The notes under the pieces were generated by a model. It made no database searches, was not told the DNA's origin, and worked only from the letters and a program-made list of their open reading frames with translations. Positions 35,243 to 54,507 of a stretch of 64,000 bases of DNA are shown one piece after another. The DNA comes from Alphaproteobacteria bacterium (GTDB lineage Bacteria; Pseudomonadota; Alphaproteobacteria; UBA7887). The stretch spans positions 1,059,219-1,123,218 of the forward strand of contig CBDEUQ010000003.1 in NCBI GenBank assembly GCA_965243325.1, in the 5' to 3' direction. Made by a program: the position numbers and the translations under genes. Numbering within the stretch: the stretch's first letter is position 1; each line of letters begins with the position of its first letter.

Positions 35243-35383
35243 GAAGGGACGTCTCCTTTAGCCGGTCGATTCCCGACCGCCACCGGCTTCATCCGTCGAT
35301 TACATCACCTCGGCCACGGGAGGCAAACCCTTGCCGGGACGACCATGCACAGTGGGGAGCGCACGCCGGCGCCGCCCGGCTCA

Positions 35384-38300: not shown

Positions 38301-40843
38301 GCGCCGTGCACCGTCGAGCTCCAGGCGTGGTCGAGGTGCCGGAGCTGCGGATCGTCGTGCGCGAGCGAGAGCTCCCGCCCGTCGTCCAGCAGGAGCCGCA
38401 CGCGGGTTCCGGTGATCGCCGTCACCTCCGCCCGCTCGCCGTTCACGAGGTCCCGCGTCCGGTCGTTGCGCGTCCAGCGGATGCGGTCGCCCGCGCGTAT
38501 CTCCATGGGCCGCGTCTCGTAGACCTCGATACGGTAGCGGGTGCGGCCCCGTTCCGGCGCGACATGGCGCGGCTTGCCGTCGGGGTGGCGCAGCAGCAGC
38601 CGGTCGCCCTCGATGCCGGCGATGGTCAGCGCGTCGTCTCTCTTTACCCGGTAGTTCACCATGTCCTGGTTGAACACCACCGTGTCGCCCTCGCGGTAGT
38701 TGCCGACGTCCGCCATCTCGGCGCGCGTCATGCCGAGCCCGACAAGGCGCCCGATGCGGAGCGTGCGGCCCCGCAGCGCGCCTTCCGCCGCCAGCGCCTC
38801 GCGCACCGCCGCGTTGATCTCCGCCCTCAGATCGTGCGTCTGCGCCACCAGCAGGGTCCGCGCGCGCGTGCCGGCGTCGAGCGCGAGCCAGGCCTCCGCC
38901 GCCTTCCGCCCCAGCTCGTCCCAGGGTACCTCGTGCACGCTGCTGCCGAGCAGCTCCACCGCCTCGCCCGGCTCGCCTTCCAGCACCGCCGCCACCGCCC
39001 CTCGCAGCTTCGGCTCGCGCTGGCGGAGGATCTCGTTCATCTCCGCCGTCGCCATGCCCGCCCGCTGGAGCAGCCGGAACGGTTGGCCCGCCTCCACGGC
39101 GCGCAGCTGGCCGCGGTCGCCGACCAGCACCAGGCGCGCCACCTCGAGCTCGTCGGCGATCCGCATCAGGCGCTTCATCTGGTCGGTCGAGACCATCGAC
39201 GCCTCGTCGAGTACCAGCACCGCGCCCCGGTAGCGCTCCCTCAGACGACCGATCGCGGGCCCGCCGCCTGCCCCGGACTCCGATCCGGGGTCCACCGACC
39301 GGCAGCGGGCGAGGAACCGTTGCAGGGTCTCGGCCGCCATGCCCGTCTCGCGCGCCAGCACCCGCGCCGCCGCGGTCGAGGGCGCGAGGCCGATGACGGC
39401 GCGATCCCCCGCGAGCCCGCGCACGTGGCGCAGCATCGTCGTCTTGCCGGTCCCGGCCCGGCCCTGCACGCCGACGACCCGGTCCGGCGTCAGCAGGATC
39501 GCACGCACCGCCTCCTCCTGACCCGCGGTGAGGCCGGCGTCCGCCAGACGCGCCGCGACCGCGTTCCCGGCGGCAAGCGCCACGCCGTTCCCGACGCCGG
39601 CCTTCATCGCGGCGATCACCGCGCGCTCCGCCTTCAGCGCCCGGTCGGTCACGAACGCTCGGGTCGCGCGTCCGGGCTTCGCCTCGACCAGATGCGCGTC
39701 CCGCACCAGGCACGAGATCGCGTCGCGTATCTCCCCGAGCGTGTGCCGCCCCGGAGAGTGGCCGAGCGCCAGGGCTTCCAGCTGGCCGGCCGCGAACACC
39801 GACTGCCGCTCCTCGAGATGCCGCATCGCCTGCCACGCGATCTTCAGCGCCGAGGGAACCGCCGGCGCCGGAGCCGGCCGACGTGCGCGGCGGACCGCCG
39901 GAACCTCTCCAAGCTCCCCGGCCCGGGCGGCCCAGATCGTCCGCAGCATCGCGTGCAGCGGCTCCGCCTTGCGCTTGCGCGTCGCCAGCGCCGCGATCTG
40001 CGCCGCCGCCTGCCCATGGTCCCAGCCCCGCTCGTCCATGTACGCTTCCATCTGCTTCCTGCGGGTCGAGAAGGCGTCCCGGATCCGCCGGTCGTAGCCC
40101 GCGATCTCGAAGCTCCGCAGGCGCCCCGCCATCTCCGGCACGATAGAATAGCCCCTGCCGATCAGGCGCCGCGCCAGCTGGTCCCGGTAGTACGCCCCGA
40201 TCAGCGTTGCGTTCCGGTGCAGGCCGGTCGGCTCGATGCTCTTCCAGCGGCCCCCGCCGTCGCGCGTCATGTTCGCGACCACCGCGTGCGTGTGCAGCTG
40301 CGGGTCGAGATTGCGGCTCGCGATGTGCCGGAACAGCGCCGCCGCCATGCCGTGCGCCCTGACGCGCGGGCGCCGGCCCGTCGCAGGGTCGTAGCCCCGC
40401 GTCTGCAGAAGCGTCTCCTCGATCCAGTCGAGCGTCGCCTTCACCGCCTCGTCGTGGCAGTGCAATACGCCCCGGTCGCCGCGGGGATGCTTCCCAGTCG
40501 GCAGGAGCGCCGCCAGCGATACGGACTTCGGGGCCGAGAACGTGATGTCGAAACCGGGCCGGTGCTCGTGCTTCCCGTCGCGCCGGCGCCCCAGCCGGAT
40601 GTCCGTCCCCGGCACGTGGCCCTGAAGGATCGCCTCGAACGTCGCTGCCGAAACCTTAGCCCCCGCCTCCAGTCCGAGTGCCGCCGCGCCCCGGCCGTGC
40701 CAGGCGCTCGCCTGACGGTGCTCCGCCGCCTTCGCGCGCGCCGCCTCGCGGTCGCCCCCGGCCGCAACGTAGTAGCCGCCCTCATGCCGGAAATACTCCG
40801 CCGTCGAAGACGACGACGTCAGATTGCGAACCTTCGCCACCAT
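35384..40843 (-). CDS. MOBF (TrwC/TraI-like) relaxase-helicase with long repeated C-terminal extension
   Basis: YFRHEGGYY, DITFSAPKSVS, DPQLHTHAVVAN (HUH), GRAGTGKT, LVLDEASM, TVHGAQGST. Confidence 0.95.
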   Translation of the reverse strand: MVAKVRNLTSSSSTAEYFRHEGGYYVAAGGDREAARAKAAEHRQASAWHGRGAAALGLEAGAKVSAATFEAILQGHVPGTDIRLGRRRDGKHEHRPGFDITFSAPKSVSLAALLPTGKHPRGDRGVLHCHDEAVKATLDWIEETLLQTRGYDPATGRRPRVRAHGMAAALFRHIASRNLDPQLHTHAVVANMTRDGGGRWKSIEPTGLHRNATLIGAYYRDQLARRLIGRGYSIVPEMAGRLRSFEIAGYDRRIRDAFSTRRKQMEAYMDERGWDHGQAAAQIAALATRKRKAEPLHAMLRTIWAARAGELGEVPAVRRARRPAPAPAVPSALKIAWQAMRHLEERQSVFAAGQLEALALGHSPGRHTLGEIRDAISCLVRDAHLVEAKPGRATRAFVTDRALKAERAVIAAMKAGVGNGVALAAGNAVAARLADAGLTAGQEEAVRAILLTPDRVVGVQGRAGTGKTTMLRHVRGLAGDRAVIGLAPSTAAARVLARETGMAAETLQRFLARCRSVDPGSESGAGGGPAIGRLRERYRGAVLVLDEASMVSTDQMKRLMRIADELEVARLVLVGDRGQLRAVEAGQPFRLLQRAGMATAEMNEILRQREPKLRGAVAAVLEGEPGEAVELLGSSVHEVPWDELGRKAAEAWLALDAGTRARTLLVAQTHDLRAEINAAVREALAAEGALRGRTLRIGRLVGLGMTRAEMADVGNYREGDTVVFNQDMVNYRVKRDDALTIAGIEGDRLLLRHPDGKPRHVAPERGRTRYRIEVYETRPMEIRAGDRIRWTRNDRTRDLVNGERAEVTAITGTRVRLLLDDGRELSLAHDDPQLRHLDHAWSSTVHGAQGSTADGVIAVLDSSMGALTDRSTFYVEISRARDSAVVLTDNCEQLVEVLEAHTGERATALEAAGEDIGPDAEVAAILPQPPAWSPRDDWTALEEKARTLGTILFRVEGYPELIARTRALVAGYPDLAPAVREVADGLLAYDRNVREGDGGAAEFLGLLDLHFGRRAELERRAAPDGPLAGLEDYPAWRQMSERLAANGRAVLEDAGERAGEAGTRLAGRLDDLDALGVLDDAVLRFETLRAAVDRRAAEAGTIPFYADGHGELVDAARALLQCRLLPAGMRAAADEVIAAAAACERRRNDIAALHEATAGLVAEHGGLEARAGDGPPTALEEWQDWADRSEVAAGRWQAMLDGADVWRPHLDRLATEHAAISAAVGRLADYRDRDEAWAALAAERLKIVKRAKAAGVAWFYVVGWAGFVAKAAAFGERTELPAAAAALAEGIVKYDRACREARAAVDGFLADERRHRRDWRTLEREADLRRREEDDPNLSMAELPGYGPLSERAAALRTTGEAILADGETYGIHLDRTPDARARIAAGLKRLEAHGPLDRFVAVSARLTKTRAAAAALGILPFHDPGHGEAVAEAERLAKERALEAAARRRLGEALDEHAARAAEWARAEALLRDMAMLASRRRRLEARARKEKVPLTLLAGAADWRAANGRFVEDGLSALDDRDLRDEGHWRSRPADLERIAEAVAAAERDRRVPEADRARIADMTRAAAARLRDPGAEHRFGRRWRGGQPLVEGDRLRLRRFRDGPENEALVVRAGWSGGRLGQDRVTLRWLASVPGHEPERMEEDIPARALAGCGVRLADWDDDRLREAELDRQRGAPTAGFPLDCRGEVFRDDLLRWTELLHQEYWERQARRRRRDVLPEVVHFEGRLVDRGVASARMDDPCTVEVAWRSDGGPAGERRLSLGALTGRGCWRPLGDPGEEELRRARARVETREIAVARQLLLEQTPELSIRISLRP

Positions 40844-41622
40844 CGCCAGACACCATAGGCCACGCCGGGCGGCCGTCGACGTCGACGGCGGCGAAACGGC
40901 CTCGATCCGTCGGGCCGTTCTCCCGGCGTGACCGGGCTGCGGACGGTGGGCGTCCCGCCGGCATGGCGCCGGCGGGACGCCCGAAAGAGCGGCCTGTCAG
41001 CCCCTCTGGCGGCGGTCGTGAAAGATGCCCGTCGCGATGTCGCCCCAGATCTGTCTGCCGCTCCGGGTGCGCCGCCCCGTGCCGCCCAGGCCCGTGCAGA
41101 CGATGATCTCCGTGCGCGCCGGGCGCAGCGCCTCGACCTCCGCGCGCGAGGCAACCGTGCGATCCTTCTTGCACTGACTTCGTGTCTTCTGTCCCTCGGG
41201 AGGGACGGGGCGGATGTCGCCGCAGATCGAGGCCTTGAAGCGCTCGACCACGAAGCGGTCTTCGCCGTCGAGGCCGTTGCCGAAATTGTGAACGAGGTAC
41301 GTCGGGGTGCCGCCCCGCAACGCTACGATGCTCCGCATGATGATGTCTCCGTCGTGCCGGTGGTCAGGAACGGCGGCAGCGCGTCTCCCCCGCGCCCGCC
41401 GCCGCCCGGACCCCAGCCGGCCTCCGACTCCTTCGCCGGCGCATCGCGCGGCGGCGAACGACCGGGCGGCGGCGAGAGTGCGACTGACCCGTTGGACGGG
41501 TAGGATCAGGGATCGGGCGCGGGTTCGATCGGCGATTCCGGTATGGCGGTCACGGTGGAAAGGGGCGGCGGGGACTTGCGGGTCACGCCCGGCGTCGTCA
41601 GCGGGAACAGGGGAGCGAGCGA

Positions 41623-41904
41623 GTGAAGAAGGCAGAGATCGTCGAGTGCGTGGCGGACGAGGCGGGTATCGCGAAACAGGCGGCCCGGGACGCCGTGGGC
41701 ACCGTGGGCGCCGTCTTCGACGCCATCGCGGAGGCGCTGGCGCGGGGCGAGGACATTTCCGTCATCGGGTTCGGCGGATTCTCGAGGACCGACCGGCCGG
41801 CCCGCGAGGGGCGTAACCCGCGTGCCGGCGAACGCATCGCTATCGGCCCGTCGTCCAGGGTATCGTTCAAGGTGGGCAAGCCGCTGAAGGACGCGCTGAG
41901 CTGA
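41623..41904 (+). CDS. HU-family DNA-binding protein
   Basis: MKKAEIV..GFGGFS..REGRNPRAGERIAI..SFKVGKPLKDAL. Confidence 0.9.
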   Translation: MKKAEIVECVADEAGIAKQAARDAVGTVGAVFDAIAEALARGEDISVIGFGGFSRTDRPAREGRNPRAGERIAIGPSSRVSFKVGKPLKDALS

Positions 41905-42235
41905 TGAAGGCCGGCGGGCCGTTGACGGCCCAAGCACTCTGACGCCCCCGTTACCGCGTTGATGTTCGTGTCCAACGTAACGGACAGGTAGCCCGTCACA
42001 GACCACGACCTCTGCCGACGGATCCGCACCAGGAAGCCGAGCGCGTTCTCCCGCACCTCGGGCAGCAGGTCGTCCACCGCGAGAGCCTCGCGGACCCGCG
42101 GCCTGCCAGAAATCCGCGACAGACGACGACACTGATAGCTGGAGTGTTGCTATAGCCAGCTACGGTACCATGATGGCAATTCCTCGCGTCAACTCTGAGC
42201 AGTCGAATATTTCTCGCCGGGAGGGAGTTGACGCA

Positions 42236-44782
42236 GTGCGACAGGCTTGGGGCAAGTTCGACGGAAAGAGCGGCGAGACGCACCCGCTCGCCCATCACTG
42301 CATGGACGTGGCGGCCGTGTTCGCGGCGATGCTTCGACTCCCGGTGGTCCGCAACCGGCTGGAAACGGCCGCCGAGGCGCGCCTCGGGGATACTCTGTGC
42401 CAGAGGCTTGCCGCACTCGTTTTCCTGCACGATGTCGGGAAACTCCACCCGGCGTTTCAGGCCAAAGGCTGGTCGCGCGAATTGTCGCGCCGGCCGGTGG
42501 GCGGACATTTGCGAGAGAGCTGGGAGTTTCTGTTACTGGCAGCCAAGCAGTCCGATCATCCTTTTCATGAGACGATGCAACAGATAATGACGTGGGGAGA
42601 GGCGGTCGGACCGCTCTTCTCGGCGGCCATAGCGCACCACGGCCGCCCTGTGGAGGCGGTGTCGAATCCGACGATGGGCGTATGGGATTCGCCCGAGACC
42701 CCGCACTACGACTGGCGGGCCGAAGCGCGGACGATGAGCGATGTCATGCGCCGCTGGTTCGCCCCCGCGTTCGAACTGGAAAGAACGCCGTTGCCGAACA
42801 GCCCCTTGTTCCACCACGCGGTAACCGGGTTGGCCGCATTGGCAGACTGGATCGGTTCGGATACGAGGTTCTTTCCGTACAGCGCTCCCTTCGATTTGGA
42901 ATACGAGGTCAAGTCGCGCCGCGCCGCCGAACCGGCGCTGAAAGCGATCGGCTTCGACAGCCGACACATCGCCGCGCGACCGGCACCGCATTTCGGGGAG
43001 TTGACGGATTTTCCGAAGCCAAGGCCGACGCAAGCCGCGGTCGGGGCTTGCGAACCGGATGCCCGCTTGGTGATTCTCGAAGCGGAGACGGGCTCCGGAA
43101 AGACGGAAGCAGCGCTGTGGCGTTTCACCCGGCTCTTCGCTGCGAGCAGGGTGTCCAGCCTCTATTTCGCGGTGCCGACGCGTGCCGCCGCCAAACAGCT
43201 TCACGGCCGCGTCGACCGCGCTCTGCGCCGGGCGTTGGGAGCGGACGCGCCCGAAGCCGTCTTGGCGATTCCCGGCGTCCTGCGCGCGGGAGAGTTCGAG
43301 GGACAGCGCCTGCCGGACTGGCGGGTGAGGTGGGACGACGATGCGCAATCCGCCCCCAAGCGGTGGGCAGCCGAGCACGCGACGCGCTTTCTCGCCGCGA
43401 CCGTGGCCGTCGGCACGGTCGATCAGGCGATGCTTGCGGGACTTCAGGTGAAGCACGCGCACCTTCGGGGCAGCGCGCTCGGCCGAAGCCTGCTGGTGAT
43501 CGACGAGGTTCATGCATCCGACGCGTACATGACGGAGGTTCTTCGACGTCTTCTAGATCAGCACCTGAAGATCGGGGGGTATGCGATGCTGATGTCGGCG
43601 ACGCTGGGCGCGAGGGCGCGCGTTCGGTGGACCGGGGAGGCATTGCCCGAATTCGAGACCGCGCGCGCCGCGCCCTATCCGGCGGTGTGGGTGGCAGATG
43701 CAAACGAGCCGCGGGCTCCGGGCGAGGCCGGGCGGCCGAAGGAGGTGCACATCGGCGCCGAGTCGACGATGGACCCGGCCAGCGCGGCTCGTCGCGCCAT
43801 CGTGGCGGCGGAGCGGGGCGCGCGGGTGCTGGTGATTCGCAACACCGTGACCAAGGCCGTCGAGACGTGGCGCGCGGTCGAGGAATTCGGCGCCGAACGT
43901 CTGCTTATGCAGGTGGCCGCGGGACCGGCGCTGCACCACGGCCGTTTCGCGGTGGAGGACCGCGTCCTGCTCGAAAACGCAGTTGAAGACGCGCTCGCGG
44001 CCGACCGCACGCGGGAGGCGGGTGGTTGCATCGTCGTCGGCACACAGACGCTGGAGCAATCTCTCGATATCGACGCCGATTTCCTGATCTCCGATCTTTG
44101 CCCGGTGGACGTGCTGTTGCAGCGCATCGGACGCCTCCACCGGCACCGCCTCCCTCGTCCCGAAGGCTTCGAGACCGCCCGCGTATCGGTGATGCTGCCG
44201 GAAGACGGGCTGGACCGCCTTGCCGCTCCGGCGTTCGAGAATGGGCTGGGCGGATGGGACTCGAAGGACGGCTTCAACGGGATCTATCGCGACCTGGCCG
44301 GCCTGGAACTGACTCGACGACTGATCGACGAACGCTCCATCTGGCGAATACCGGAGATGAACCGTGAGCTGGTGGAAGGCGCCACGCATCCCGAACGAAT
44401 CGCCGACGTGCTCAAGGCCAAAGGGCCGAGGTGGCAGGAGTACGACCGACGTCACGGCGGCACGGAGGCGGCCGCCCGGATGGTTGCCGGGCTCATAGTC
44501 CTGGATCGCACCCATCGACTCGAAACGCTGAGGTTCCCGAACTCCGACGAGAGAATCATGACGCGGCTCGGCGAAGAGGGCGCTATTCTGTCGCTTGCAT
44601 CTCGACCCGCCGGCCCGTTCGGCTCTCCGGTAACTCGCATCGCGTTGCCCGCGCGCTGGAGTCGGGGTATCGACGACCGGACGGAACCGGCGGTCGAACG
44701 TGAGGACAGCGGCTTCCGCCTGTCGGTCGGGGACTGGCGATTTCGGTACTCGCGCGAAGGGCTTGCCCGGTTGCCGCGTTGA
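42236..44782 (+). CDS. cas3: Type I-E helicase-nuclease Cas3
   Basis: HPLAHH..LHDVGK HD domain, AETGSGKT, DEVH, GTQTLEQSLDID, QRIGRLHRH; GTG after GGAGGGAG. Confidence 0.96.
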   Translation: MRQAWGKFDGKSGETHPLAHHCMDVAAVFAAMLRLPVVRNRLETAAEARLGDTLCQRLAALVFLHDVGKLHPAFQAKGWSRELSRRPVGGHLRESWEFLLLAAKQSDHPFHETMQQIMTWGEAVGPLFSAAIAHHGRPVEAVSNPTMGVWDSPETPHYDWRAEARTMSDVMRRWFAPAFELERTPLPNSPLFHHAVTGLAALADWIGSDTRFFPYSAPFDLEYEVKSRRAAEPALKAIGFDSRHIAARPAPHFGELTDFPKPRPTQAAVGACEPDARLVILEAETGSGKTEAALWRFTRLFAASRVSSLYFAVPTRAAAKQLHGRVDRALRRALGADAPEAVLAIPGVLRAGEFEGQRLPDWRVRWDDDAQSAPKRWAAEHATRFLAATVAVGTVDQAMLAGLQVKHAHLRGSALGRSLLVIDEVHASDAYMTEVLRRLLDQHLKIGGYAMLMSATLGARARVRWTGEALPEFETARAAPYPAVWVADANEPRAPGEAGRPKEVHIGAESTMDPASAARRAIVAAERGARVLVIRNTVTKAVETWRAVEEFGAERLLMQVAAGPALHHGRFAVEDRVLLENAVEDALAADRTREAGGCIVVGTQTLEQSLDIDADFLISDLCPVDVLLQRIGRLHRHRLPRPEGFETARVSVMLPEDGLDRLAAPAFENGLGGWDSKDGFNGIYRDLAGLELTRRLIDERSIWRIPEMNRELVEGATHPERIADVLKAKGPRWQEYDRRHGGTEAAARMVAGLIVLDRTHRLETLRFPNSDERIMTRLGEEGAILSLASRPAGPFGSPVTRIALPARWSRGIDDRTEPAVEREDSGFRLSVGDWRFRYSREGLARLPR

Positions 44783-44789
44783 TTCGGTA

Positions 44790-44817
44790 TTGACGGCCCC
44801 GTCCGGAAGAATATTAA
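44790..44817 (+). promoter_or_regulatory. Predicted promoter of the cse1-cas2 operon
   Basis: TTGACG-16 bp-TATTAA just after cas3 stop in a low-GC intergenic region. Confidence 0.6.
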
Positions 44818-44980
44818 ACGGTGTAATTAGTGCGGGTGAGTGCGCTATTTCTTTTGCGATGCGGGTGAATGCCATGCGGTTCGGATTGAGTTGCGACCTT
44901 CAGTTCGTCAAGCGTTTGGGCGGATGGATCGGTGGCAGCCGCCTGACCTGTGCGGTGACTTTGTCTGTGGACTCCGCTCA

Positions 44981-45074
44981 CGATTCCCGAAAACGGCTTC
45001 GGGATAGACCAGGCGTGATTAGTGCGATGCGGGCATGTCCAACGGATTCCCCATACCACCATGGGGTTGTTGAG
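44981..45074 (+). ncRNA. Degenerate one-spacer mini-CRISPR array (putative Cas-regulating crRNA-like RNA)
   Basis: psi-repeat 1 CGATT-CCCGAA-N6-TTCGGG-ATAGACCA; 32-nt spacer 45012-45043; psi-repeat 2 GGATT-CCCCAT-N6-ATGGGG; spacer matches 44820-44834. Confidence 0.8.
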
Positions 45075-45088
45075 AAGGGAAATTGTCG

Positions 45089-46630
45089 ATGAATCTTATC
45101 GCCGAGCCGATTTTGACGGTCGCCGGCGGCGACAAAGTTTCGCTTCCGGGTCTGTTCGCGGCGATGTCCCGAAACGAAGTGCGCGGATTCCCGGCGTTAC
45201 GCCCGCACCAGAGGCCCGCGTGGCACATGTTCTGTGCGCAACTCGGTGCGCTGGCGCTGAATGCCGCGAACCGCCTCGAGTTCCCGGATAGCGAAGCCGA
45301 ATGGGCGGCGTGTCTGCGAAACCTCACGCCCGATCATGCGGACGATGCGCCGTGGCGCCTTGTCGTGGAGGATCGTCGGAAACCGGCCTTCATGCAGTCA
45401 CCGGACCCCGGCGGTCTCAAGTGGTCTCCCGTCGAGACCCCGGACCGATTGGACATGCTCATCACCTCGCGAAACCACGAGCTCAAGCAACGGGTCGCGG
45501 TAGGGGCTGGAGCGGAACACTGGGTGTTGGCGCTGGTTTCGCTACAGACCTCGGAAGGTTATGGCGGCGTCGGCAATCACGGCATAGCACGTATGAATGG
45601 CGGTGCGTCCAGCCGTCCGTTACTCGGGCTTACGCCGGCCCGAAACGGTGAAATAGCGGTCGATCCGTCACGATGGTGGACTCGGGACGTTCGCCGGTTA
45701 ATCGAGGATCGTGCGCGTGGGCGTCGCAATACGATAGGGACCGGTGGCGGACCGGCGCTGCTATGGTGCCTCGATTGGGAAGAGGGCCGGCAACTCGACG
45801 TCCGGACTCTCGATCCGTGGTTCATTGAGGTTTGCCGGCGCGTGCGCTTGACCGTCGGGGGCGGTGCGTTGTCGGCAATCCGGGCGAACTCAAAGAGGCC
45901 TCGGACGGCTGCGCGCGCATTCCGTGGCGTTGTCGGCGATCCGTGGGCGCCGGTCCACAGGGCGGAAGGCAAGAGTTTTACGATCGGACCAGGCGACATG
46001 GACTACACGCAGCTTTGCAAGCTGTTGTTCTCCGGCGACTGGGAGAGGCCGTTTCTGGCGCAAGCCGGCGATGCCGAACCGGGCGATACGGTGCTGGTCG
46101 CCGAGGCTCTTTCGCGTGGCAACAGCAAGACGGAGGGTTTCAAGTCCCGCGTGGTGCCAGTTCCGGAGGCGGTCGTGCCGTTCTTCTCTTCAGAGACCGC
46201 AGCAACGTGCGCGAAGGCGCAGATGGACGAGATCAAGGGTTTCGACGCCGCGCTCCGCAACGCCCTGGCCTTGGTCGCCGCGGGCGGGCACCGGGACAAA
46301 ATCGAGAGGAAACACTACTCCGGCGCCGGGCCTGCGCGGAAGCGGTTCGATCACGCGGCGGACCGCATGTTCTTCCGCCATTTGTGGCGGCGCGTTGCAG
46401 TCGCTTCCAGCAGCGACGACAAGGTTTTCCACGTCAAACGAGCATTCCTTGACGAGTTGATGGAGGCGGCGAAGGCGGAATTGAACGCGGCGCTGCCGGC
46501 CGTGCCCTGTCCGGCGATGTTCCGGCCCAGGGCCGAGGCGCGCGCACGCCGAGCGTTCGTCGGCAAGCTTCGACGGACCGCGGTATGTCGGGAATTGTTT
46601 GTAGGGGAGCGAAGCGATGTCGCTGCGTGA
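45089..46630 (+). CDS. cse1: Cascade large subunit Cas8e/Cse1
   Basis: LRPHQRPAWHMF, LVSLQTSEGYGG, IARMNGG, WFIEVCRRVRL; operon position. Confidence 0.9.
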   Translation: MNLIAEPILTVAGGDKVSLPGLFAAMSRNEVRGFPALRPHQRPAWHMFCAQLGALALNAANRLEFPDSEAEWAACLRNLTPDHADDAPWRLVVEDRRKPAFMQSPDPGGLKWSPVETPDRLDMLITSRNHELKQRVAVGAGAEHWVLALVSLQTSEGYGGVGNHGIARMNGGASSRPLLGLTPARNGEIAVDPSRWWTRDVRRLIEDRARGRRNTIGTGGGPALLWCLDWEEGRQLDVRTLDPWFIEVCRRVRLTVGGGALSAIRANSKRPRTAARAFRGVVGDPWAPVHRAEGKSFTIGPGDMDYTQLCKLLFSGDWERPFLAQAGDAEPGDTVLVAEALSRGNSKTEGFKSRVVPVPEAVVPFFSSETAATCAKAQMDEIKGFDAALRNALALVAAGGHRDKIERKHYSGAGPARKRFDHAADRMFFRHLWRRVAVASSSDDKVFHVKRAFLDELMEAAKAELNAALPAVPCPAMFRPRAEARARRAFVGKLRRTAVCRELFVGERSDVAA

Positions 46631-47192
46631 CGAAACGCCAGCGAGGGCCGCACTTGCGGTTGCGGCGGAAATCGGGCGACTGGCGCCCGGTCCGCTGTCG
46701 GACTTGCGGCGAATGGAGCGCAGCACGGCGGCGCCCGCGTTCTGGAGGCTGGCGGCCCGACACCCGGCAACCGTGGGGCGGCCCGACAGGCATGAACATT
46801 GGATGGCCATCGTTCGCATCCTCGCGATTTTGACGCCGAAGGAAGACCCCGCGGACAGGGCCGAATTGCACGATGGCAAACGCCCCTTGGGCAAGGTCTT
46901 GTGCGACGGCGGCGATCCCGCTTGGCCTTCGAAGGAAGGCTTGGCACCGGTGCCAGTGTACAGCGAACGCCGCCTTGCACAGCTTATTGCGGCGCGCGGT
47001 ACGCAGCGCGCGGTCTTGTTGCAGCGGGCGGCCCGCGCGATCGCCCGGAGCAAGGCGAAGGACTCGGGGATCGACGTGGTGGATATCGCTTTCACGGTGC
47101 TGGCGCCCGACGACGGACGGCGGCTGGCCGAACCGTATTATCGGCGGTTGGACCGCGCCGTTCAACGATCCCAAGAAGGAACGACCGAATGA
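46617..47192 (+). CDS. cse2: Cascade small subunit Cas11/Cse2
   Basis: LSDLRRM, PAFWRL, SERRLAQL; operon position. Confidence 0.88.
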   Translation: MSLRDETPARAALAVAAEIGRLAPGPLSDLRRMERSTAAPAFWRLAARHPATVGRPDRHEHWMAIVRILAILTPKEDPADRAELHDGKRPLGKVLCDGGDPAWPSKEGLAPVPVYSERRLAQLIAARGTQRAVLLQRAARAIARSKAKDSGIDVVDIAFTVLAPDDGRRLAEPYYRRLDRAVQRSQEGTTE

Positions 47193-48313
47193 CGACGCAT
47201 CGTTTTCTGCAAATCCACACGCTTACGCCCTACACCGCCGCGCTTCTCAACCGGGACGACAGCGGCTTGGCGAAACGGCTGCCCTACGGCGGCGCGTTAC
47301 GCACGCGCGTGTCGTCGCAGTGCCTCAAACGGCATTGGCGGTTTGCCGACGATCCGCACGCATTGAGTGAGATCGACGGCGCGAAAGCCGCATATCGGTC
47401 GCGCGAGCTGGTGACGAGAAAGGTAATCGAGCCGCTCCGCAGCCGCTTCCCCGAGGATGTCGTCGATGCCTTGGAACCCGAGGTCCAGATGGCGGTCTAC
47501 GGCGACAAGGGCACGGAGAAGAAAACGAGGCAAACGCTGATTTTCGGGGAGCCCGAGCTCGAGTGGCTGAGGACTCAGGCGGAAGACTTGGCAACGACGG
47601 CGGCGGGGGACGCGAAGGCCGCTTCCGAGGGCGCGAAGGCTTGGAGAAAGGATTTTCGGCCGAACATCAGAGCATTGCGTGAAAGCGCGGCCTTGCCTGC
47701 CGGTTTGGTATCCGCCCTGTTCGGCCGCATGGTGACGTCGGATACGGATGCGAACATCGCCGCGCCCGTGCACGTCGCGCACGCATTCACGGTTCACGAG
47801 GAGGAATCGGAGAGCGATTACTTCACGGCCGTCGACGACCTCGCCGACGACGAGCCCGGGGCCGATACCATTCAGGAGACGGAACTCACGTCGGGCCTGT
47901 TCTACGGATATGTCGTGGTCGATCTGCCCGGCCTCGTCGAAAATCTGAGCGGCAACGCCGCGTTGGCCGGGCAGGTGCTGCACAACGTCGTCTATTTGAT
48001 CGCGGAGGTATCGCCGGGAGCGAAACTAGGGTCTACCGCGCCGTACGGTCGAGCGAGCTTCATGTTGCTCGAGGCCGGCGACCGTCAGCCCCGCAGCTTG
48101 GCCGAAGCGTACCGCGATCCCAGCGAGCCTCGCGTCGATGCGGCGGTGGGCGCGCTCTCGGTGCATCTCGTCAAGCTGGACGATGCCTATGCCACCGGCG
48201 AGGAGCGATATGTGATGTCCCTGGTGAATGCGGACGTCCCGGGAGCCACGCGCGGGTCGCTGGCGGACCTCGCGACCTGGGTGAAGATGTTGCCGAAGGC
48301 TGCGGAATCGTGA
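47189..48313 (+). CDS. cas7: Cas7 (Cse4)
   Basis: FLQIHTL..LNRDDSGLAK..RVSSQCLKRHWR, ALFGRM, VAHAFT, DYFTAVDDL. Confidence 0.96.
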   Translation: MTTHRFLQIHTLTPYTAALLNRDDSGLAKRLPYGGALRTRVSSQCLKRHWRFADDPHALSEIDGAKAAYRSRELVTRKVIEPLRSRFPEDVVDALEPEVQMAVYGDKGTEKKTRQTLIFGEPELEWLRTQAEDLATTAAGDAKAASEGAKAWRKDFRPNIRALRESAALPAGLVSALFGRMVTSDTDANIAAPVHVAHAFTVHEEESESDYFTAVDDLADDEPGADTIQETELTSGLFYGYVVVDLPGLVENLSGNAALAGQVLHNVVYLIAEVSPGAKLGSTAPYGRASFMLLEAGDRQPRSLAEAYRDPSEPRVDAAVGALSVHLVKLDDAYATGEERYVMSLVNADVPGATRGSLADLATWVKMLPKAAES

Positions 48314-49035
48314 GCCGCCGCTGGCTCGTTCTGCGGTTCGACGCGCCGTTGATGGCTTTCGGCGACGTCGCGGTGGATCAGGTCGGTCCGGTGCGCGATT
48401 TTCCCGCGGCCTCGATGTTGACGGGGTTGATCGGCAATGCGCTCGGCTGGCGCTGGTCTCACCGCGCCGAGCATCAGGCGGTACAGGATCGGCTCGTTTT
48501 CGCCGCGCGCCGCGATCGGGAGGGCGCGCTTCTCACGGACGTGCAGAACGCGCAGCTTGCGAAAAGCGACAAGGGATGGACGACTCGCGGCGCCCCCGAA
48601 GGGCGGGACGGGGCCAGCTACGACGCGCCGCACCGGCGTTCGCGGGACTATCACGCCGATGTCTCGGTAAGCGTCGTATTGCGGCTTGAGCCGGCGGAGG
48701 ACACGCCGACGCTCGATGACGTAGCGGAGGCCTTTAAACGGCCGGCGCGGCCGCTGTTCCTCGGTCGAAAGCCGTGTCTTCCTGCGGCACCGGTCGTCCC
48801 GAACGAACCCGAGCGTTGGGTGACGGGCGAGAACGCTCACGACGCCCTGTGTACGATCCCTCGGCGCGGCGAGGGTTCGGTCCGGGCGATGTGGCCGTCG
48901 AGAAGCGGGCCCGCAAGCGGCGGCGGCGTGGAGCGGGTTGTCGATCTGGCCGATTTGCGGAACTGGCACACCGGCTTGCACGGCGGTTCGCGCCGCGTGG
49001 TCGAGGGCCGGGTCGCCCCGGCGGTCCCGGGATGA
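48310..49035 (+). CDS. cas5: Cas5e
   Basis: LRFDAPLMAFG, SMLTGLIGNALG, RDYHAD, LFLGRKPC. Confidence 0.95.
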   Translation: MSRRWLVLRFDAPLMAFGDVAVDQVGPVRDFPAASMLTGLIGNALGWRWSHRAEHQAVQDRLVFAARRDREGALLTDVQNAQLAKSDKGWTTRGAPEGRDGASYDAPHRRSRDYHADVSVSVVLRLEPAEDTPTLDDVAEAFKRPARPLFLGRKPCLPAAPVVPNEPERWVTGENAHDALCTIPRRGEGSVRAMWPSRSGPASGGGVERVVDLADLRNWHTGLHGGSRRVVEGRVAPAVPG

Positions 49036-49811
49036 CGGCGCTCCATCTGGTCCGGGTCCCGGTCGCCACCGACAAGCTGGCGCGGTGGGCGCGCGAGCGC
49101 TTTTGGACCGGCGGCGGCCGGGGGCGCGTTGAGTTCGACGAGGGACGCGCGCTGCATCACCTCGTCGCCGAGGCCTTGGGGCCCGGCGCGCTTCGTCCGT
49201 TCCGGCTGCTTGTCCCGCCGCGGCGCACCCGCGGCAATTTGTACGCTTATTCGGCTCTGGAAGCCGACACACTGCGCACCGCCGCCCAAACGTACGCGCT
49301 ACCGGATCATCTCGGCGTGTTGTCCGTGGAGCGGCTCGAGAGCAAGCGCATGCCCGGCGTCTGGCGCGTTGGGCAGCGGCTCGGATTCGACGTGCGCGCG
49401 CGCCCCGTTCGGCGTCTGTTACGTGCGCTGAGGACGTCGTCCGGCATCGAGATCGGCGCCGGGGCCGAGGTCGACGCGTTCCTGCGGGAAGCGCTGAACG
49501 TGCAGGCGGGCGGAATGGCGGCTGGACATCGCACCCGCCAGGACGTTTACGTCGACTGGTTGGCCGAAAGGCTCGCCCCCGCCGCCGCGCTGGACCGCTC
49601 GACGAGTCGGCTCGCCCGGTTTCACCGCGTCCGCGTCGACCGCGGCCAGCGCGGTGTCGAAGGTCCGGACGCGACCATCCAGGGAGTGCTGACGGTGAGC
49701 GACCCCGCGGCGTTCGCGGAAACGCTCTCGCGCGGCGTCGGGCGACACCGGGCCTATGGGTACGGCATGCTGCTCTTGCGGCCGCCGAATCGCCCGGCGC
49801 CGGCCGGCTGA
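49032..49811 (+). CDS. cas6e: Cas6e (Cse3)
   Basis: LGFDVRARPV; G-rich loop GVGRHRAYGYGMLLL. Confidence 0.93.
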   Translation: MTALHLVRVPVATDKLARWARERFWTGGGRGRVEFDEGRALHHLVAEALGPGALRPFRLLVPPRRTRGNLYAYSALEADTLRTAAQTYALPDHLGVLSVERLESKRMPGVWRVGQRLGFDVRARPVRRLLRALRTSSGIEIGAGAEVDAFLREALNVQAGGMAAGHRTRQDVYVDWLAERLAPAAALDRSTSRLARFHRVRVDRGQRGVEGPDATIQGVLTVSDPAAFAETLSRGVGRHRAYGYGMLLLRPPNRPAPAG

Positions 49812-50696
49812 ATGCTGAAGGGACGGCTCGGTCTCGACAGCGCGAGGGTCCCCTACAAGGACAGGGCCGGGCTGCTCTACCTTGCGCGCGGCGCATTGAC
49901 GGCGCGGGACGGAACGCTTGCCTTCGCCCAGCGCCGGGAGGCGTCGGCGGACGCGTTGGGGCCGGGCGACTACGCCATCCCGCTGCAAGGCGTTTCGATG
50001 ATCCTGCTCGGGCCGGGATCAACGGTCAGCCACGACGCGCTAAGGCTGCTCGCGCATGCGCGCACGGCGTTGGCGGCTGTGGGCGAAGACGGAGTCCGCC
50101 TCTATACGGCGCCGCCCCTTATCCCCGACCGATCGGGTCTGGCGCGGGCGCAGGCGCGGCTGTGGGCCGACGGCGAACGCCGAGTCGCGGTCGCGCGGCG
50201 CATGTACGCATGGAGGTTGGGCGAGGTTCTGCCGCATCGCTCCCTCGATGTGCTGCGCGGCATCGAGGGAGCGCGCATGAAGGAGGGCTACCGCCTGCTG
50301 GCACGGCAGATCGGGGTAGAGTGGCGCGGGCGGCGCTACGATCGCGCCCGCCCGCAGGCTGCGGACCTTCCCAACCAGGCGCTCAATCACGCTTCCAGTG
50401 CGACGGAGGCTGCGGCCGCTATTGCCGTTGCCGCCACCGCGACGATCCCGCAATTGGGCTTCGTTCACGAAGACCCCGGACAATCCTTCGTGCTCGATAT
50501 CGCCGACCTCTACCGCGACTCGGTAACCGTGCCGTGCGCTTTCCGTGCCGCCCGGCGTGTCACGGAACGCCCTGAGGAAAATATTGAGCGTGTCACGCGT
50601 CGTCTGGTCGGCCACACGCTCGCCGGCGAGCAGGTCATTCCGGCGATGATCGGTCGACTCAAGTCCCTGTTTGCCGAACCGCCGGACAAGGACTGA
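49812..50696 (+). CDS. cas1: Type I-E Cas1
   Basis: LLGPGSTVSHDA, RGIEGARMK, QLGFVH, SFVLDIADLY. Confidence 0.96.
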   Translation: MLKGRLGLDSARVPYKDRAGLLYLARGALTARDGTLAFAQRREASADALGPGDYAIPLQGVSMILLGPGSTVSHDALRLLAHARTALAAVGEDGVRLYTAPPLIPDRSGLARAQARLWADGERRVAVARRMYAWRLGEVLPHRSLDVLRGIEGARMKEGYRLLARQIGVEWRGRRYDRARPQAADLPNQALNHASSATEAAAAIAVAATATIPQLGFVHEDPGQSFVLDIADLYRDSVTVPCAFRAARRVTERPEENIERVTRRLVGHTLAGEQVIPAMIGRLKSLFAEPPDKD

Positions 50697-50703
50697 ACGA
50701 ACG

Positions 50704-51003
50704 ATGCCGATGGCCGTGGTCGTCACCCGCAACGTCGAGGCCCGCTATCGCGGATTCCTGACTTCCATCATGCTGGAAGTCGCGCCCGGCGTTTACGCTG
50801 CGCCCGATCTCTCGACGGGGGTGCGAAGACGGGTCTGGAACGTGCTTTCGGATTGGTGGGGGGTGCTCGGTACCGGATCGATTGTGATGCTCTGGCGCGA
50901 CACGGATGCCGTCGGAAATCTTCGTATCGAGACTCTCGGCGAGCCCCCGAAGGAGATCGTGGACGCCGACGGCATTTTGCTCGTAAAACGCAAGCCTGCG
51001 TAA
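50704..51003 (+). CDS. cas2: Type I-E Cas2
   Basis: RYRGFL..MLEVAPGVY, IVDADGILLV. Confidence 0.95.
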   Translation: MPMAVVVTRNVEARYRGFLTSIMLEVAPGVYAAPDLSTGVRRRVWNVLSDWWGVLGTGSIVMLWRDTDAVGNLRIETLGEPPKEIVDADGILLVKRKPA

Positions 51004-51060
51004 CCCGTTTCGCGCCCGGTTGTTTGACATCGTAGAGATATCAAGCTCTTAATGGCGAGA

Positions 51061-54000
51061 GGTTCCCCCGCACGCGCGGGGATAGACCCGGTTCGGCCAG
51101 GTCTGGCTCGAATTCGCGAGCGGTTCCCCCGCACGCGCGGGGATAGACCCTTCATGAGCTGACGCCGACCATGCGGGCGAAAGGTTCCCCCGCACGCGCG
51201 GGGATAGACCCTACGACCGCCACCGCGCCGCTCTCCAGATCGTGGTTCCCCCGCACGCGCGGGGATAGACCCCTTGCGATCAAGAAGATTGAAGTGTGCG
51301 TTGTGGTTCCCCCGCACGCGCGGGGATAGACCCGGCCCGAACGTGCCGCCGCCTTCCGCCTTGGTGGTTCCCCCGCACGCGCGGGGATAGACCCGGAGCA
51401 CAGTATTCCTTCGAGGGTGGGTCTTCGGTTCCCCCGCACGCGCGGGGATAGACCCCCTATGATCTTGGTACCATCGCGCGGCGCCGAGGTTCCCCCGCAC
51501 GCGCGGGGATAGACCCACTAGATGCGGCTTTCGGATAGCACAGCCCCAGGTTCCCCCGCACGCGCGGGGATAGACCCGGAAGACGCCGCCCAGCTGCACG
51601 CCGAAAAGTGGTTCCCCCGCACGCGCGGGGATAGACCCGACAGCCCGATCCGTCCTAGTGAGGGGGACTAGGTTCCCCCGCACGCGCGGGGATAGACCCC
51701 ACACTATGAGCCGGATCAGCGCATAGCGGTCGGTTCCCCCGCACGCGCGGGGATAGACCCGGGGCGGATATTGTGCTGCCGTTCGTGGCGAAGGTTCCCC
51801 CGCACGCGCGGGGATAGACCCTGAATGCGCGTGACATTTACGCGGACGGTTCGGGTTCCCCCGCACGCGCGGGGATAGACCCCTTGAGCACGCCAGTCGC
51901 CGCAACAGCCGGATGGTTCCCCCGCACGCGCGGGGATAGACCCTTGACGTCAGCAGATCGGACGGTTGCGACGACGGTTCCCCCGCACGCGCGGGGATAG
52001 ACCCCTTGTCGAAGATGCTCATGGACGCCCCCCCTAGGTTCCCCCGCACGCGCGGGGATAGACCCGCTTGCCGGCCTCTTCACCTTCACGGTCGAGAGGT
52101 TCCCCCGCACGCGCGGGGATAGACCCTTGTCGTGCGGGTGTATGGCAACGGCGAAAACGGTTCCCCCGCACGCGCGGGGATAAACCCGCGGACCAGTTCT
52201 CGATCCCCGACACCCGGGCGGTTCCCCCGCACGCGCGGGGATAGACCCGCCCGCCCGAGTCCCGGTCCGCACTTTTATCCGGTTCCCCCGCACGCGCGGG
52301 GATAGACCCTGCCAGGCGTGCCTCATCGCGCATCAGCCTCCGGTTCCCCCGCACGCGCGGGGATAGACCCCGGTCGCGGAACACCCGCATCGTCTCGCTC
52401 GAGGTTCCCCCGCACGCGCGGGGATAGACCATACCGATCAAATTGCCCAGCAGCACCGTACTTGGTTCCCCCGCACGCGCGGGGATAGACCTTGTTCACA
52501 CCCACGCCGATAATCCACGACGCAGGTTCCCCCGCACGCGCGGGGATAGACCCCGGTCGACGGCGTCCTGTGTCGGCCTGCGTGTGGTTCCCCCGCACGC
52601 GCGGGGATAGACCCGAGGCGGTCCTGCTCTCGCCCGGGCCCGATGGGGTTCCCCCGCACGCGCGGGGATAGACCCACCAGACATCAACGACGAACGCGGA
52701 CCCGGGAGGTTCCCCCGCACGCGCGGGGATAGACCCCGTTGGACCTCGGCGTCCGTAGCATCCTCGACGGTTCCCCCGCACGCGCGGGGATAGACCGAGT
52801 ACGGCTACGAGCTCGCCATCGCCCAGGCCGGTTCCCCCGCACGCGCGGGGATAGACCCCCTTCCGCCTCGCGCAGCGTGGCGGCAAGCTCGGTTCCCCCG
52901 CACGCGCGGGGATAGACCCCGACCCGGGGCGCCTGTTGGCCTTAATAAAGAGGTTCCCCCGCACGCGCGGGGATAGACCCCGACCCGGGGCGCCTGTTGG
53001 CCTTAATAAAGAGGTTCCCCCGCACGCGCGGGTATAGACCCGTCAACTGATCGTCAGGGAAACGTCCGAAAGTGGTTCCCCCGCACGCGCGGGTATAGAC
53101 CCCCAATAGCTCGTATAGCTGTACACCTATACCCGGTTCCCCCGCACGCGCGGGGATAGACCCCATGCAGTGGAGGGACATTGCATCCGCGCCGAGGTTC
53201 CCCCGCACGCGCGGGGATAGACCCGAGAAGGGCAACCGTGCCAAGTGTCCGCACTCGGTTCCCCCGCACGCGCGGGGATAGACCCGCCATCGCGATCGCC
53301 TCGCTTCAATCCGGCGAGGTTCCCCCGCACGCGCGGGGATAGACCCACAGAAGCCGTCGTCCTGGAGGGCTACGGCAAAGTTCCCCCGCACGCGCGGGGA
53401 TAGACCCCGCGACGGCGACGGCAACCGCGAGACCGACAAGGTTCCCCCGCACGCGCGGGGATAGACCCGCGGACGTGCGGTTCTGGTCCGCCCGGGTGAC
53501 GGTTCCCCCGCACGCGCGGGGATAGACCCCTGGCCGCCGATGCGCACCCCGCGCGCGTACCGGTTCCCCCGCACGCGCGGGGATAGACCCCGCCGTTCGC
53601 CGTCCACATCGCGTCCGAGAGCGGTTCCCCCGCACGCGCGGGGATAGACCCAGGGTGCGAGATGTCGATCCGTAAGACCATATGGTTCCCCCGCACGCGC
53701 GGGGATAGACCCCGGGCTGGGCGGCTGTCCGTTTCAAGGACGTGGGTTCCCCCGCACGCGCGGGGATAGACCCCGGTCGGCGCCGGCCGGCGCGCCCGTT
53801 ACGCTGGTTCCCCCGCACGCGCGGGGATAGACCCGCTTAGGAGGCTAAAATGCGCACGCGCTCATCTCGGTTCCCCCGCACGCGCGGGGATAGACCCGAT
53901 ATCGGCCGGCGCCGGCACCTGTGGTGCGCGGTTCCCCCGCACGCGCGGGGATAGACCCCCAGCTCGATCCGAATGCGTTCCGCTCCCTGGGGTTCCCCCG

Positions 54001-54507
54001 CACGCGCGGGGATAGACCCGCGTTGATGTTCTCCGACGCCGCTGTCGCGAGGGTTCCCCCGCACGCGCGGGGATAGACCCGTCCCCGAGCAAGCCGCCCG
54101 ACTGCAGACTAAGGTTCCCCCGCACGCGCGGGGATAGACCCTGATGGGGGACCGCATGAAGCGCTTCGTCTACGGTTCCCCCGCACGCGCGGGGATAGAC
54201 CCGGCCCGGGATCATTCTTCGTCGCCATCTGCAAGGTTCCCCCGCACGCGCGGGGATAGACCCCGCGCCGCGTGGCTCGATGACGACGCCCGGCCGGTTC
54301 CCCCGCACGCGCGGGGATAGACCCGCGGCAGGATCAACCTTGCCAGTACGAGTAAGGGTTCCCCCGCACGCGCGGGGATAGACCCCAGCCTGCGTAGCTT
54401 CCGCACCTGCAACAGCAGGTTCCCCCGCACGCGCGGGGATAGACCCTCGAGACTGTCACCGGCAATCACCGGCCAAATGGTTCCCCCGCACGCGCGGGGA
54501 TAGACCC
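51061..54507 (+). CRISPR. Type I-E CRISPR array: 57 repeats, 56 spacers
   Basis: Repeat GGTTCCCCCGCACGCGCGGGGATAGACCC (29 nt), 61-bp period, 32-nt spacers (one 34 nt); 57-bp leader after cas2. Confidence 0.99.

Follow-up and report, generated by a model that had tools for sequence, protein, structure and literature searches.

A conserved mini-CRISPR in the leader of a type I-E cas operon, predicted to guide Cascade to the promoter of its own operon

Introduction

Autorepression of cas operons by RNAs of the CreR class, which are encoded by mini-arrays of the clustered regularly interspaced short palindromic repeat (CRISPR) type, has been validated for CRISPR-Cas types I-B, I-E and V-A (Liu et al. 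2023, 10.1101/2023.03.10.532045). In the type I-E system of Salmonella enterica, CreR represses PcasA about 8.6-fold via a 15-nucleotide (nt) match beside AAG, as validated in Escherichia coli (10.1101/2023.03.10.532045). According to the survey by Shmakov (2023, 10.1101/2023.03.03.530964; PMC10120712), about 19% of the type I-E loci of bacteria carry mini-arrays, for the most part between cas3 and cas8; the survey also describes partial matches to the cas8 promoter flanked by a protospacer-adjacent motif (PAM) and notes mismatches at every sixth position (PMC10120712). Phage mimics of regulatory mini-array RNAs are the subject of a 2024/2026 preprint, and a peptide toxin repressed by Cascade has been described in the cas3-casA spacer of Citrobacter rodentium (Basta et al. 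2025, PMC12055562). Here we analyze a mini-CRISPR located between cas3 and cse1 in a 64-kb stretch of an alphaproteobacterial genome (assembly GCA_965243325.1, contig CBDEUQ010000003.1, positions 1,059,219 to 1,123,218 of the forward strand), further referred to as the window.

The core finding belongs to this known class: CreR has been established since 2023 (Liu 2023; Shmakov 2023), as the initial annotation of the window had recognized. Like CreR of S. enterica, the element is a degenerate mini-CRISPR with a single spacer between cas3 and casA/cse1, where the upstream repeat-like segment (psiR1) keeps the 5' handle and the downstream one (psiR2) keeps the hairpin; over about 15 nt it is complementary to a site beside a PAM in the predicted promoter region of casA, and it is predicted to mediate autorepression sensing the load of CRISPR RNAs (crRNAs) and anti-CRISPRs. 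Unlike in S. enterica, the PAM is AAC or AAT instead of AAG; the guide lies inside the mRNA that it would control, so that repression would affect the guide together with the Cas proteins; a translated-looking reading frame overlaps the mini-array; and the circuit is a prediction from sequence. The mini-arrays of Shmakov (2023) share with ours the long cas3-cas8 spacer, the degraded distal repeat, the PAM-flanked partial match to the cas8 promoter (a predicted one in our locus) and the sixth-position mismatches, but the cases examined in that text are antisense to cas3 and have the target downstream of the mini-array. The same antisense orientation is given for enterobacterial I-E mini-arrays by Shmakov (2023) and Basta et al. 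(2025), and in the I-E cases of these texts the mini-array is separate from the promoter that it targets, whereas the guide considered here is sense and lies downstream of its target.

The CreTA module of C. rodentium resembles our locus in that its cas3-casA spacer has both a mini-CRISPR guide and a small frame, translated there and probably translated here, which follows a promoter repressed by Cascade (by prediction in our case) and precedes casA. In C. rodentium, however, the guide is on the opposite strand, apart from the 31-amino-acid (aa) toxin frame, while in our locus the guide lies within the frame; sequence similarity is absent, and toxicity is purely hypothetical in our case. A more distant parallel is the long form of the trans-activating crRNA (tracrRNA) of cas9 (Workman et al. 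2021, as presented by Liu et al.), where a natural guide with partial complementarity likewise makes the effector repress its own promoter; that system is of type II and uses a different RNA and a different protein. Two features depart from the I-E cases described, the sense mini-array within the leader and a conserved frame of about 70 codons that has its own ribosome-binding site and runs through the mini-array to the cse1 start codon; the sense in-leader layout is a variant of the known class, supplementary catalogues of mini-arrays aside.

Results

Structure of the mini-array

The gap between cas3 and cse1 is 306 nt long and contains the mini-CRISPR. As in CreR loci, two repeat-like sequences surround one spacer-like sequence within the cas locus (44981-45074):

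44981..45011, + strand: psiR1, a hairpin (44986-45003) followed by the 8-nt 5' handle ATAGACCA (45004-45011)
45012..45043, + strand: psiS, the spacer-like guide GGCGTGATTAGTGCGATGCGGGCATGTCCAAC, exactly 32 nt long and ungapped in 25 of 25 loci
45044..45074, + strand: psiR2, with a hairpin at 45049-45066

The stem of psiR1 is formed by CCCGAA (44986-44991) and TTCGGG (44998-45003), and its 3' end, GGGATAGACC, has ten bases identical to the repeat of the CRISPR array, GGTTCCCCCGCACGCGCGGGGATAGACC. The psiR2 segment starts with GGATTCCCC, where the array repeat has GGTTCCCCC; its stem is formed by CCCCAT (45049-45054) and ATGGGG (45061-45066), and only 15 nt lie between its end and cse1. Both hairpins form in the minimum-energy fold of the complete leader. 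The cut site in psiR2 can be placed from the known behavior of Cas6e: cleavage is expected after 45066, which would yield a 63-nt RNA (45004-45066). The parts retained, that is, the handle bases of psiR1 and the hairpin of psiR2, the future 3' handle, are those retained in CreR. The mini-array differs from a canonical CRISPR array in that its repeats are degenerate, and in that its spacer shows conservation and evolves together with a site of the host's own locus. A search of the region against Rfam matched zero families.

Target site and predicted promoter

Upstream of the mini-array the window contains the following elements:

44790..44817, + strand: predicted promoter of the Cascade operon, as read from the sequence, with a -35 element TTGACG (44790-44795), 16 nt, and a -10 element TATTAA (44812-44817)
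44817..44819, + strand: PAM-like AAC, overlapping the final base of the -10 element; AAC or AAT stands beside the target in 22 of 23 loci
44820..44834, + strand: protospacer-like target of psiS, GGTGTAATTAGTGCG, 13/15 identical to psiS nt 1-15
44855..44865, + strand: second block TGCGATGCGGG, an exact 11-nt identity to psiS nt 12-22 (45023-45033)

The mismatches between psiS and the target are at spacer positions 3 and 6. Re-reading of the sequence has shown that the initial annotation was correct both in the anatomy of the mini-array (coordinates of psiR1, psiS and psiR2, stems, the 10-nt repeat identity, handle and 32-nt length) and in its description of the target, that is, the 13/15 match with these two mismatches, the AAC and the TTGACG-N16-TATTAA arrangement. 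Among AAN-flanked sites, 44820-44834 is the only one in the window with at least eight of ten seed matches, and shuffled spacers equal the target score of the window in 1.3% of trials. From the window alone, the chance explanation is only moderately unlikely; the comparative data from 24 other loci are decisive.

As to the PAM, 80 of 85 array spacers have C as the base following the 28-nt repeat core. In E. coli, the last repeat base derives from the PAM. By analogy, since C follows the repeat core, the PAM of this system would end in C, which fits AAC, and AAC may be the PAM recognized here.

The second block lies in the 5' part of the leader, 24 nt past the main target match, and an exact match of 11 nt was reached in none of 1000 shuffles. 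In the nearest relative (locus L083), C replaces T both at psiS position 17 and at the matching base of the block. The other loci do not show such a block. It could be a remnant of a longer protospacer split by an insertion, result from gene conversion, or have a second function. A terminator-like hairpin at 44828-44856 was considered as an attenuator or as the cas3 terminator and rejected, as it is weak and partly deleted in L083.

Conservation of the mini-array

Homologous loci were collected by a Cse1-based scan with one genome per species, which yielded 80 loci. The mini-array is present about 85 nt upstream of cse1 in 24 of them, making 25 loci together with the window, and a few further loci carry the element at other offsets. 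According to the record labels, the organisms belong to Bryobacterales, Terriglobia, Latescibacterota, Trueperaceae, Spirochaetia, Binatia, and Alpha- and Gammaproteobacteria.

Among the 25 aligned copies, the handle hardly varies; the spacer segment differs in sequence, but its length is always 32 nt with zero gaps; and the psiR2 hairpin is conserved, whereas the sequence 3' of its stem is not. A conserved hairpin with an unconserved tail is expected if only the parts of a mature crRNA matter. Pairing is retained in 93% of the hairpin cells overall and in 98.7% of those of the psiR2 stem, and falls to 54-59% when the partner is shifted by one column. Compensatory changes were observed at five hairpin pairs, with a covariation score reached by one of 500 shuffles. 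A covariance model built from the mini-arrays gives the window copy 72 bits and also matches canonical repeat-spacer-repeat units of arrays, on the same strand, with 24-40 bits.

We also observed that in about 11 of the 25 loci (L009, L016, L018, L019, L021, L023, L025, L026, L027, L038 and L047) the psiS seed is complementary to the 3' part of the same psiS, for example GTGGCT...AGCCAC and GTCCGA...TCGGAC. The self-folding z-scores of these spacers range from -1.3 to -2.7; psiS of the window does not have this feature (z = +0.4).

Pairing of the spacer with its own upstream site

The psiS of each locus was compared with both strands of the 500-nt stretch preceding its psiR1. The best site lies on the + strand in 23 of 25 loci, at a distance of 240-480 nt upstream of cse1; the flank is AAC or AAT in 22 of these loci and TAC in the remaining one. 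Shuffled spacers produced a best site with these properties in 16 of 1000 trials. The matches are distributed along the spacer as follows (23 loci):

positions 1-5: match in 18-23 loci
position 6: match in 1 locus
positions 7-11: match in 20-23 loci
position 12: match in 3 loci
positions 13-15: match in 15-20 loci
positions 16-17: match in 8-10 loci
beyond position 17: background

The partial complementarity next to the seed and beside the PAM that is typical of CreR, 13/15 next to AAC in the window, is a pattern of the whole family, and across the loci pairing stops at 11-17 nt, well below full length. In type I systems, Cascade flips out each sixth base of the crRNA-DNA pairing, and in type I-E short pairing permits Cascade binding without cleavage by Cas3. 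The mismatches at positions 6 and 12 have this known geometry of type I pairing. Positions 6 and 12 (44825 and 44831 in the window) match in four of 46 cases, compared to about 11 expected if the bases were merely free; this deficit hints at selection against pairing, or may reflect shared ancestry.

Spacer and target change together. The average psiS scores 12.4/15 on its own target and 7.5/15 on the targets of other loci. Relative to the pair found in the window, the match has been preserved at 113 positions by changes in both spacer and target, while 25 changes affect the spacer only and 15 the target only. Covariation of spacer and target in homologous I-E loci, which the initial annotation had proposed as a check, is therefore present. 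In L083, where Cse1 is 86% identical and the spacer region 92% identical to those of the window, the target differs from the window target at spacer positions 6 and 12 only, and the mismatch at position 3 is kept. In most of the 23 loci, TTGAC[AG] and a -10-like hexamer about 16-18 nt apart were identified by eye 0-16 nt upstream of the PAM. Direct observations thus far are the anatomy of the element, the extent to which it is conserved, the joint change of spacer and target, and mismatches in the pattern typical of Cascade.

Reading frame through the mini-array

The leader contains one more conserved feature, absent from the initial annotation:

44874..45092, + strand: small reading frame of 72 codons, starting with ATG at 44874, reading through psiR1, psiS and psiR2, and ending with a TGA that overlaps the cse1 ATG

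The frame is open in 21 of 25 loci, where it has 64-77 codons, an ATG 191-230 nt before cse1 and a stop overlapping or abutting the cse1 start. Most of these frames are preceded by a GGAGG-like ribosome-binding site, with a median binding energy of -7.4 kcal/mol versus -5.2 kcal/mol for cse1. In the 200 nt before cse1, the 25 loci have eight stops in this frame, four of them being its own terminal stop, compared to 71 and 80 for the remaining two frames; if only the variable parts are counted, there are eight versus 49 and 40. None of the antisense frames is depleted of stops (30, 76 and 30), and an antisense gene was rejected. In related pairs, the 35 codons before psiR1 differ 158, 120 and 197 times at codon positions 1, 2 and 3, respectively, and four of seven changes between the window and L083 are synonymous by our reading of the alignment. 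The terminal TGA at +4 is uninformative, because the conserved Met-Asn at the beginning of Cse1 imposes it. Loci L003, L004 and L015 have lost the N-terminal part of the frame and retain the mini-array.

These patterns suggest that the leader frame is probably translated. Only 12 called homologues of the leader peptide were found among 5.8 billion proteins. A Pfam search with the peptide gave zero matches, it has no similarity to known CreT, and AlphaFold2 predicted no confident fold for it (predicted local distance difference test score, pLDDT, 59; predicted template modeling score, pTM, 0.21). We found no support for translational coupling as a compensation for weak ribosome binding at cse1, since loci with and without the mini-array are alike in this respect (Mann-Whitney p = 0.55).

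Discussion

A predicted feedback loop on the Cascade operon

Taken together, our data suggest that the mini-array is most likely a CreR-type regulatory mini-CRISPR closing a negative feedback loop on the Cascade operon. The initial annotation had read it as a mini-array of the CreR/CreA type that guides Cascade to its own promoter, and this reading is supported by conservation, the 32-nt length, the hairpin and spacer/target covariation and, as a sequence pattern, by the AAY flank, the mismatches at positions 6 and 12, the 11-17-nt pairing and the -35/-10 site.

The promoter, start site, processing, binding and repression in this loop are what we infer, as follows. Transcription from 44790-44817, or read-through from cas3, would produce an mRNA leader holding psiR1, psiS and psiR2. 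Cas6e would cut at the base of both hairpins, releasing a crRNA-like RNA of about 63 nt that consists of the handle, the 32-nt psiS and the psiR2 hairpin. Cascade loaded with this RNA would read AAC at 44817-44819 and pair with the template strand over spacer positions 1-15. Such pairing would be too short to license Cas3, but would cover the end of the -10 element and the likely start site and block initiation. Since the guide would compete with ordinary crRNAs for Cas proteins, repression would relax under abundant crRNAs or inhibition of Cascade; this last step is proposed by analogy with the experiments on CreR of the Salmonella I-E system (Liu et al. 2023, 10.1101/2023.03.10.532045).

A promoter scan found no internal promoter upstream of psiR1 or between psiR2 and cse1. 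Because the latter gap is so short and zero other promoter-like sites were found in it, the cse1 mRNA must contain the mini-array, and for this reason the source of the guide would be the very transcript under its repression, or else read-through from cas3. The suggestion in the initial annotation that the leader of the cas mRNA may itself be a pre-crRNA follows from this anatomy.

Several observations weigh against the loop. The consensus promoter scan gave no call at 44790-44817, because the -10 element lacks the final T. In this 4-Mb genome with 70% G+C, 76 sites reach 12 of 15 scored positions, the same as the promoter site, so that the target is not unique genome-wide by match count. An even better match, AAC-flanked GGCGTGATCAGCGCGGT at C3:2826769, has 13 of 15 scored psiS matches and a perfect seed at positions 1-8; it lies outside the window, in a stretch open in several reading frames and apparently coding, and is probably a chance match in a genome of such G+C content, or else a candidate second target. 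Array spacers match zero protospacers in the phage collection or in the organism's own genome, so that the PAM is inferred indirectly. The pairing in the window carries a seed mismatch at position 3, shared with L083. Loci L003 and L007 have a well-formed mini-array and zero PAM-flanked targets in the fetched locus, which in L003 includes 411 nt of upstream sequence only; these may be orphaned or decaying copies. Finally, the 23 loci are not independent, as several represent related lineages, and the counts overstate the number of evolutionary events; there are at least 19 different seed sequences among them.

If the predicted loop operates, it would be of interest in several respects. Circuits of the CreR type explain how Cas levels can be low and still respond to crRNA load and anti-CRISPRs. 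The clade provides 25 natural replicates over several phyla (as labeled in the records), and evolution across these loci displays the binding rule of Cascade: five paired bases, one free, and a stop short of full pairing. In the sense in-leader layout the guide would come from the repressed transcript, which implies a control logic unlike that of a separately transcribed guide. Such elements are overlooked by array finders and gene callers alike.

Alternative explanations and the role of the leader frame

The conserved frame of 64-77 codons lies under the predicted repressed promoter, and this position bears on whether the guide resembles CreR or the CreA of a CreTA module. The frame may serve for coupling, may sense the activity of Cas6e, or may encode a peptide similar to CreT. 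Tentatively, the guide may sit inside a translated leader frame of about 70 codons in such a way that Cas6e cleavage and ribosomes share one RNA, forming a two-tier feedback, or the frame may encode a CreT-like toxin; we regard this proposal as possible rather than probable. In the two-tier scheme, the Cas6e cut would separate the leader frame from cse1 and free the guide, which would then close the promoter; alternatively, the mRNA of a CreT-like toxin would be destroyed by the safeguarded enzyme itself. Neither arrangement is described in the CreR and CreTA literature cited here, supplementary catalogues aside. A safeguard similar to CreTA might exist instead of a pure CreR or beside it, with the frame starting at 44874 encoding a harmful peptide made only if Cascade or Cas6e fails, when repression lapses and the mRNA stays uncut inside the frame. 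The conserved frame with its ribosome-binding site, its four internal stops versus 71 and 80 in the other frames, and codon-position differences (158/120/197) resembling those of a coding sequence are consistent with such a peptide, as is the agreement in position with the 31-aa CreT peptide of the C. rodentium type I-E system (PMC12055562). On the other hand, the mini-CRISPR dictates the C-terminal half of the product, the N-terminal half shows weak conservation and is not hydrophobic, three loci that keep the mini-array lack the N-terminal part (L003, L004 and L015), and the product has neither a predicted fold (pLDDT 59) nor a Pfam match. Overall, we consider a safeguard of this kind unlikely. 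The frame that overlaps the guide deserves experimental attention. If it is translated, translation, RNA processing and transcription would be linked in one 220-nt stretch.

Two further explanations concern the guide itself. The element could be a relic in this genome if the seed mismatch at position 3 and the 13/15 pairing make binding too weak for Cascade; the score of the window, 12/15, is at the low end of the family, and L007 shows that copies without a target exist. However, the position-3 mismatch has been preserved in L083 while positions 6 and 12 drift, eight other, otherwise well-matched loci have seed mismatches at positions 1 or 2, and neither the hairpins nor the handle nor the 32-nt length is impaired, so that decay appears quite improbable to us. 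An ordinary small protein gene before cse1, with an incidental likeness to CRISPR, would account for the open frame, the ribosome-binding site and the coding-like substitution pattern, but would leave unexplained the 10-nt repeat identity, the presence of two hairpins and their compensatory changes, the constant spacing of 32 nt, and the fact that the variable segment matches a site upstream which has an AAY flank and is mismatched at positions 6 and 12. The covariation of spacer and target already argues strongly against it, and we see hardly any chance that it is true.

Genomic context of the locus

The type I-E system on the + strand of the window is complete, from cas3 to cas2, followed by the array:

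42170..44782, + strand: cas3 (HD nuclease and helicase; NCBIfam Cas3 models, E = 1.5e-90 and 5e-51)
45089..46630, + strand: cse1/cas8e (TIGR02547, E = 5e-15; 1590 homologues)
46617..51003, + strand: cse2, cas7, cas5, cas6e, cas1 and cas2 (NCBIfam matches for each but cse2)
51061..54506, + strand: CRISPR array, about 55 repeats with a 61-nt period

A block of 11,003 bp with the cas operon is found twice in the assembly in identical form, at C3:1099306-1110308 (window positions 40088-51090) and at C3:1-11003, the extreme start of contig C3; both copies include the mini-CRISPR and its target. The arrays following the two copies differ, having 33 and 54 repeats and zero spacers in common. This can be either a true duplication or an assembly artefact at the array. 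The duplicated block starts within the 3' end of a 2061-aa reading frame (34673-40858), which ends about 1.3 kb upstream of cas3, and the CRISPR locus may be located on or beside a mobile element. A same-genus conservation check did not find the mini-CRISPR element in the window's own genus, and because of this absence the locus was probably gained horizontally, with the mini-array moving along. The array leader is about 58 nt long (51003-51061) and holds TTGACA, 17 nt and TCTTAA, a possible promoter of the array itself.

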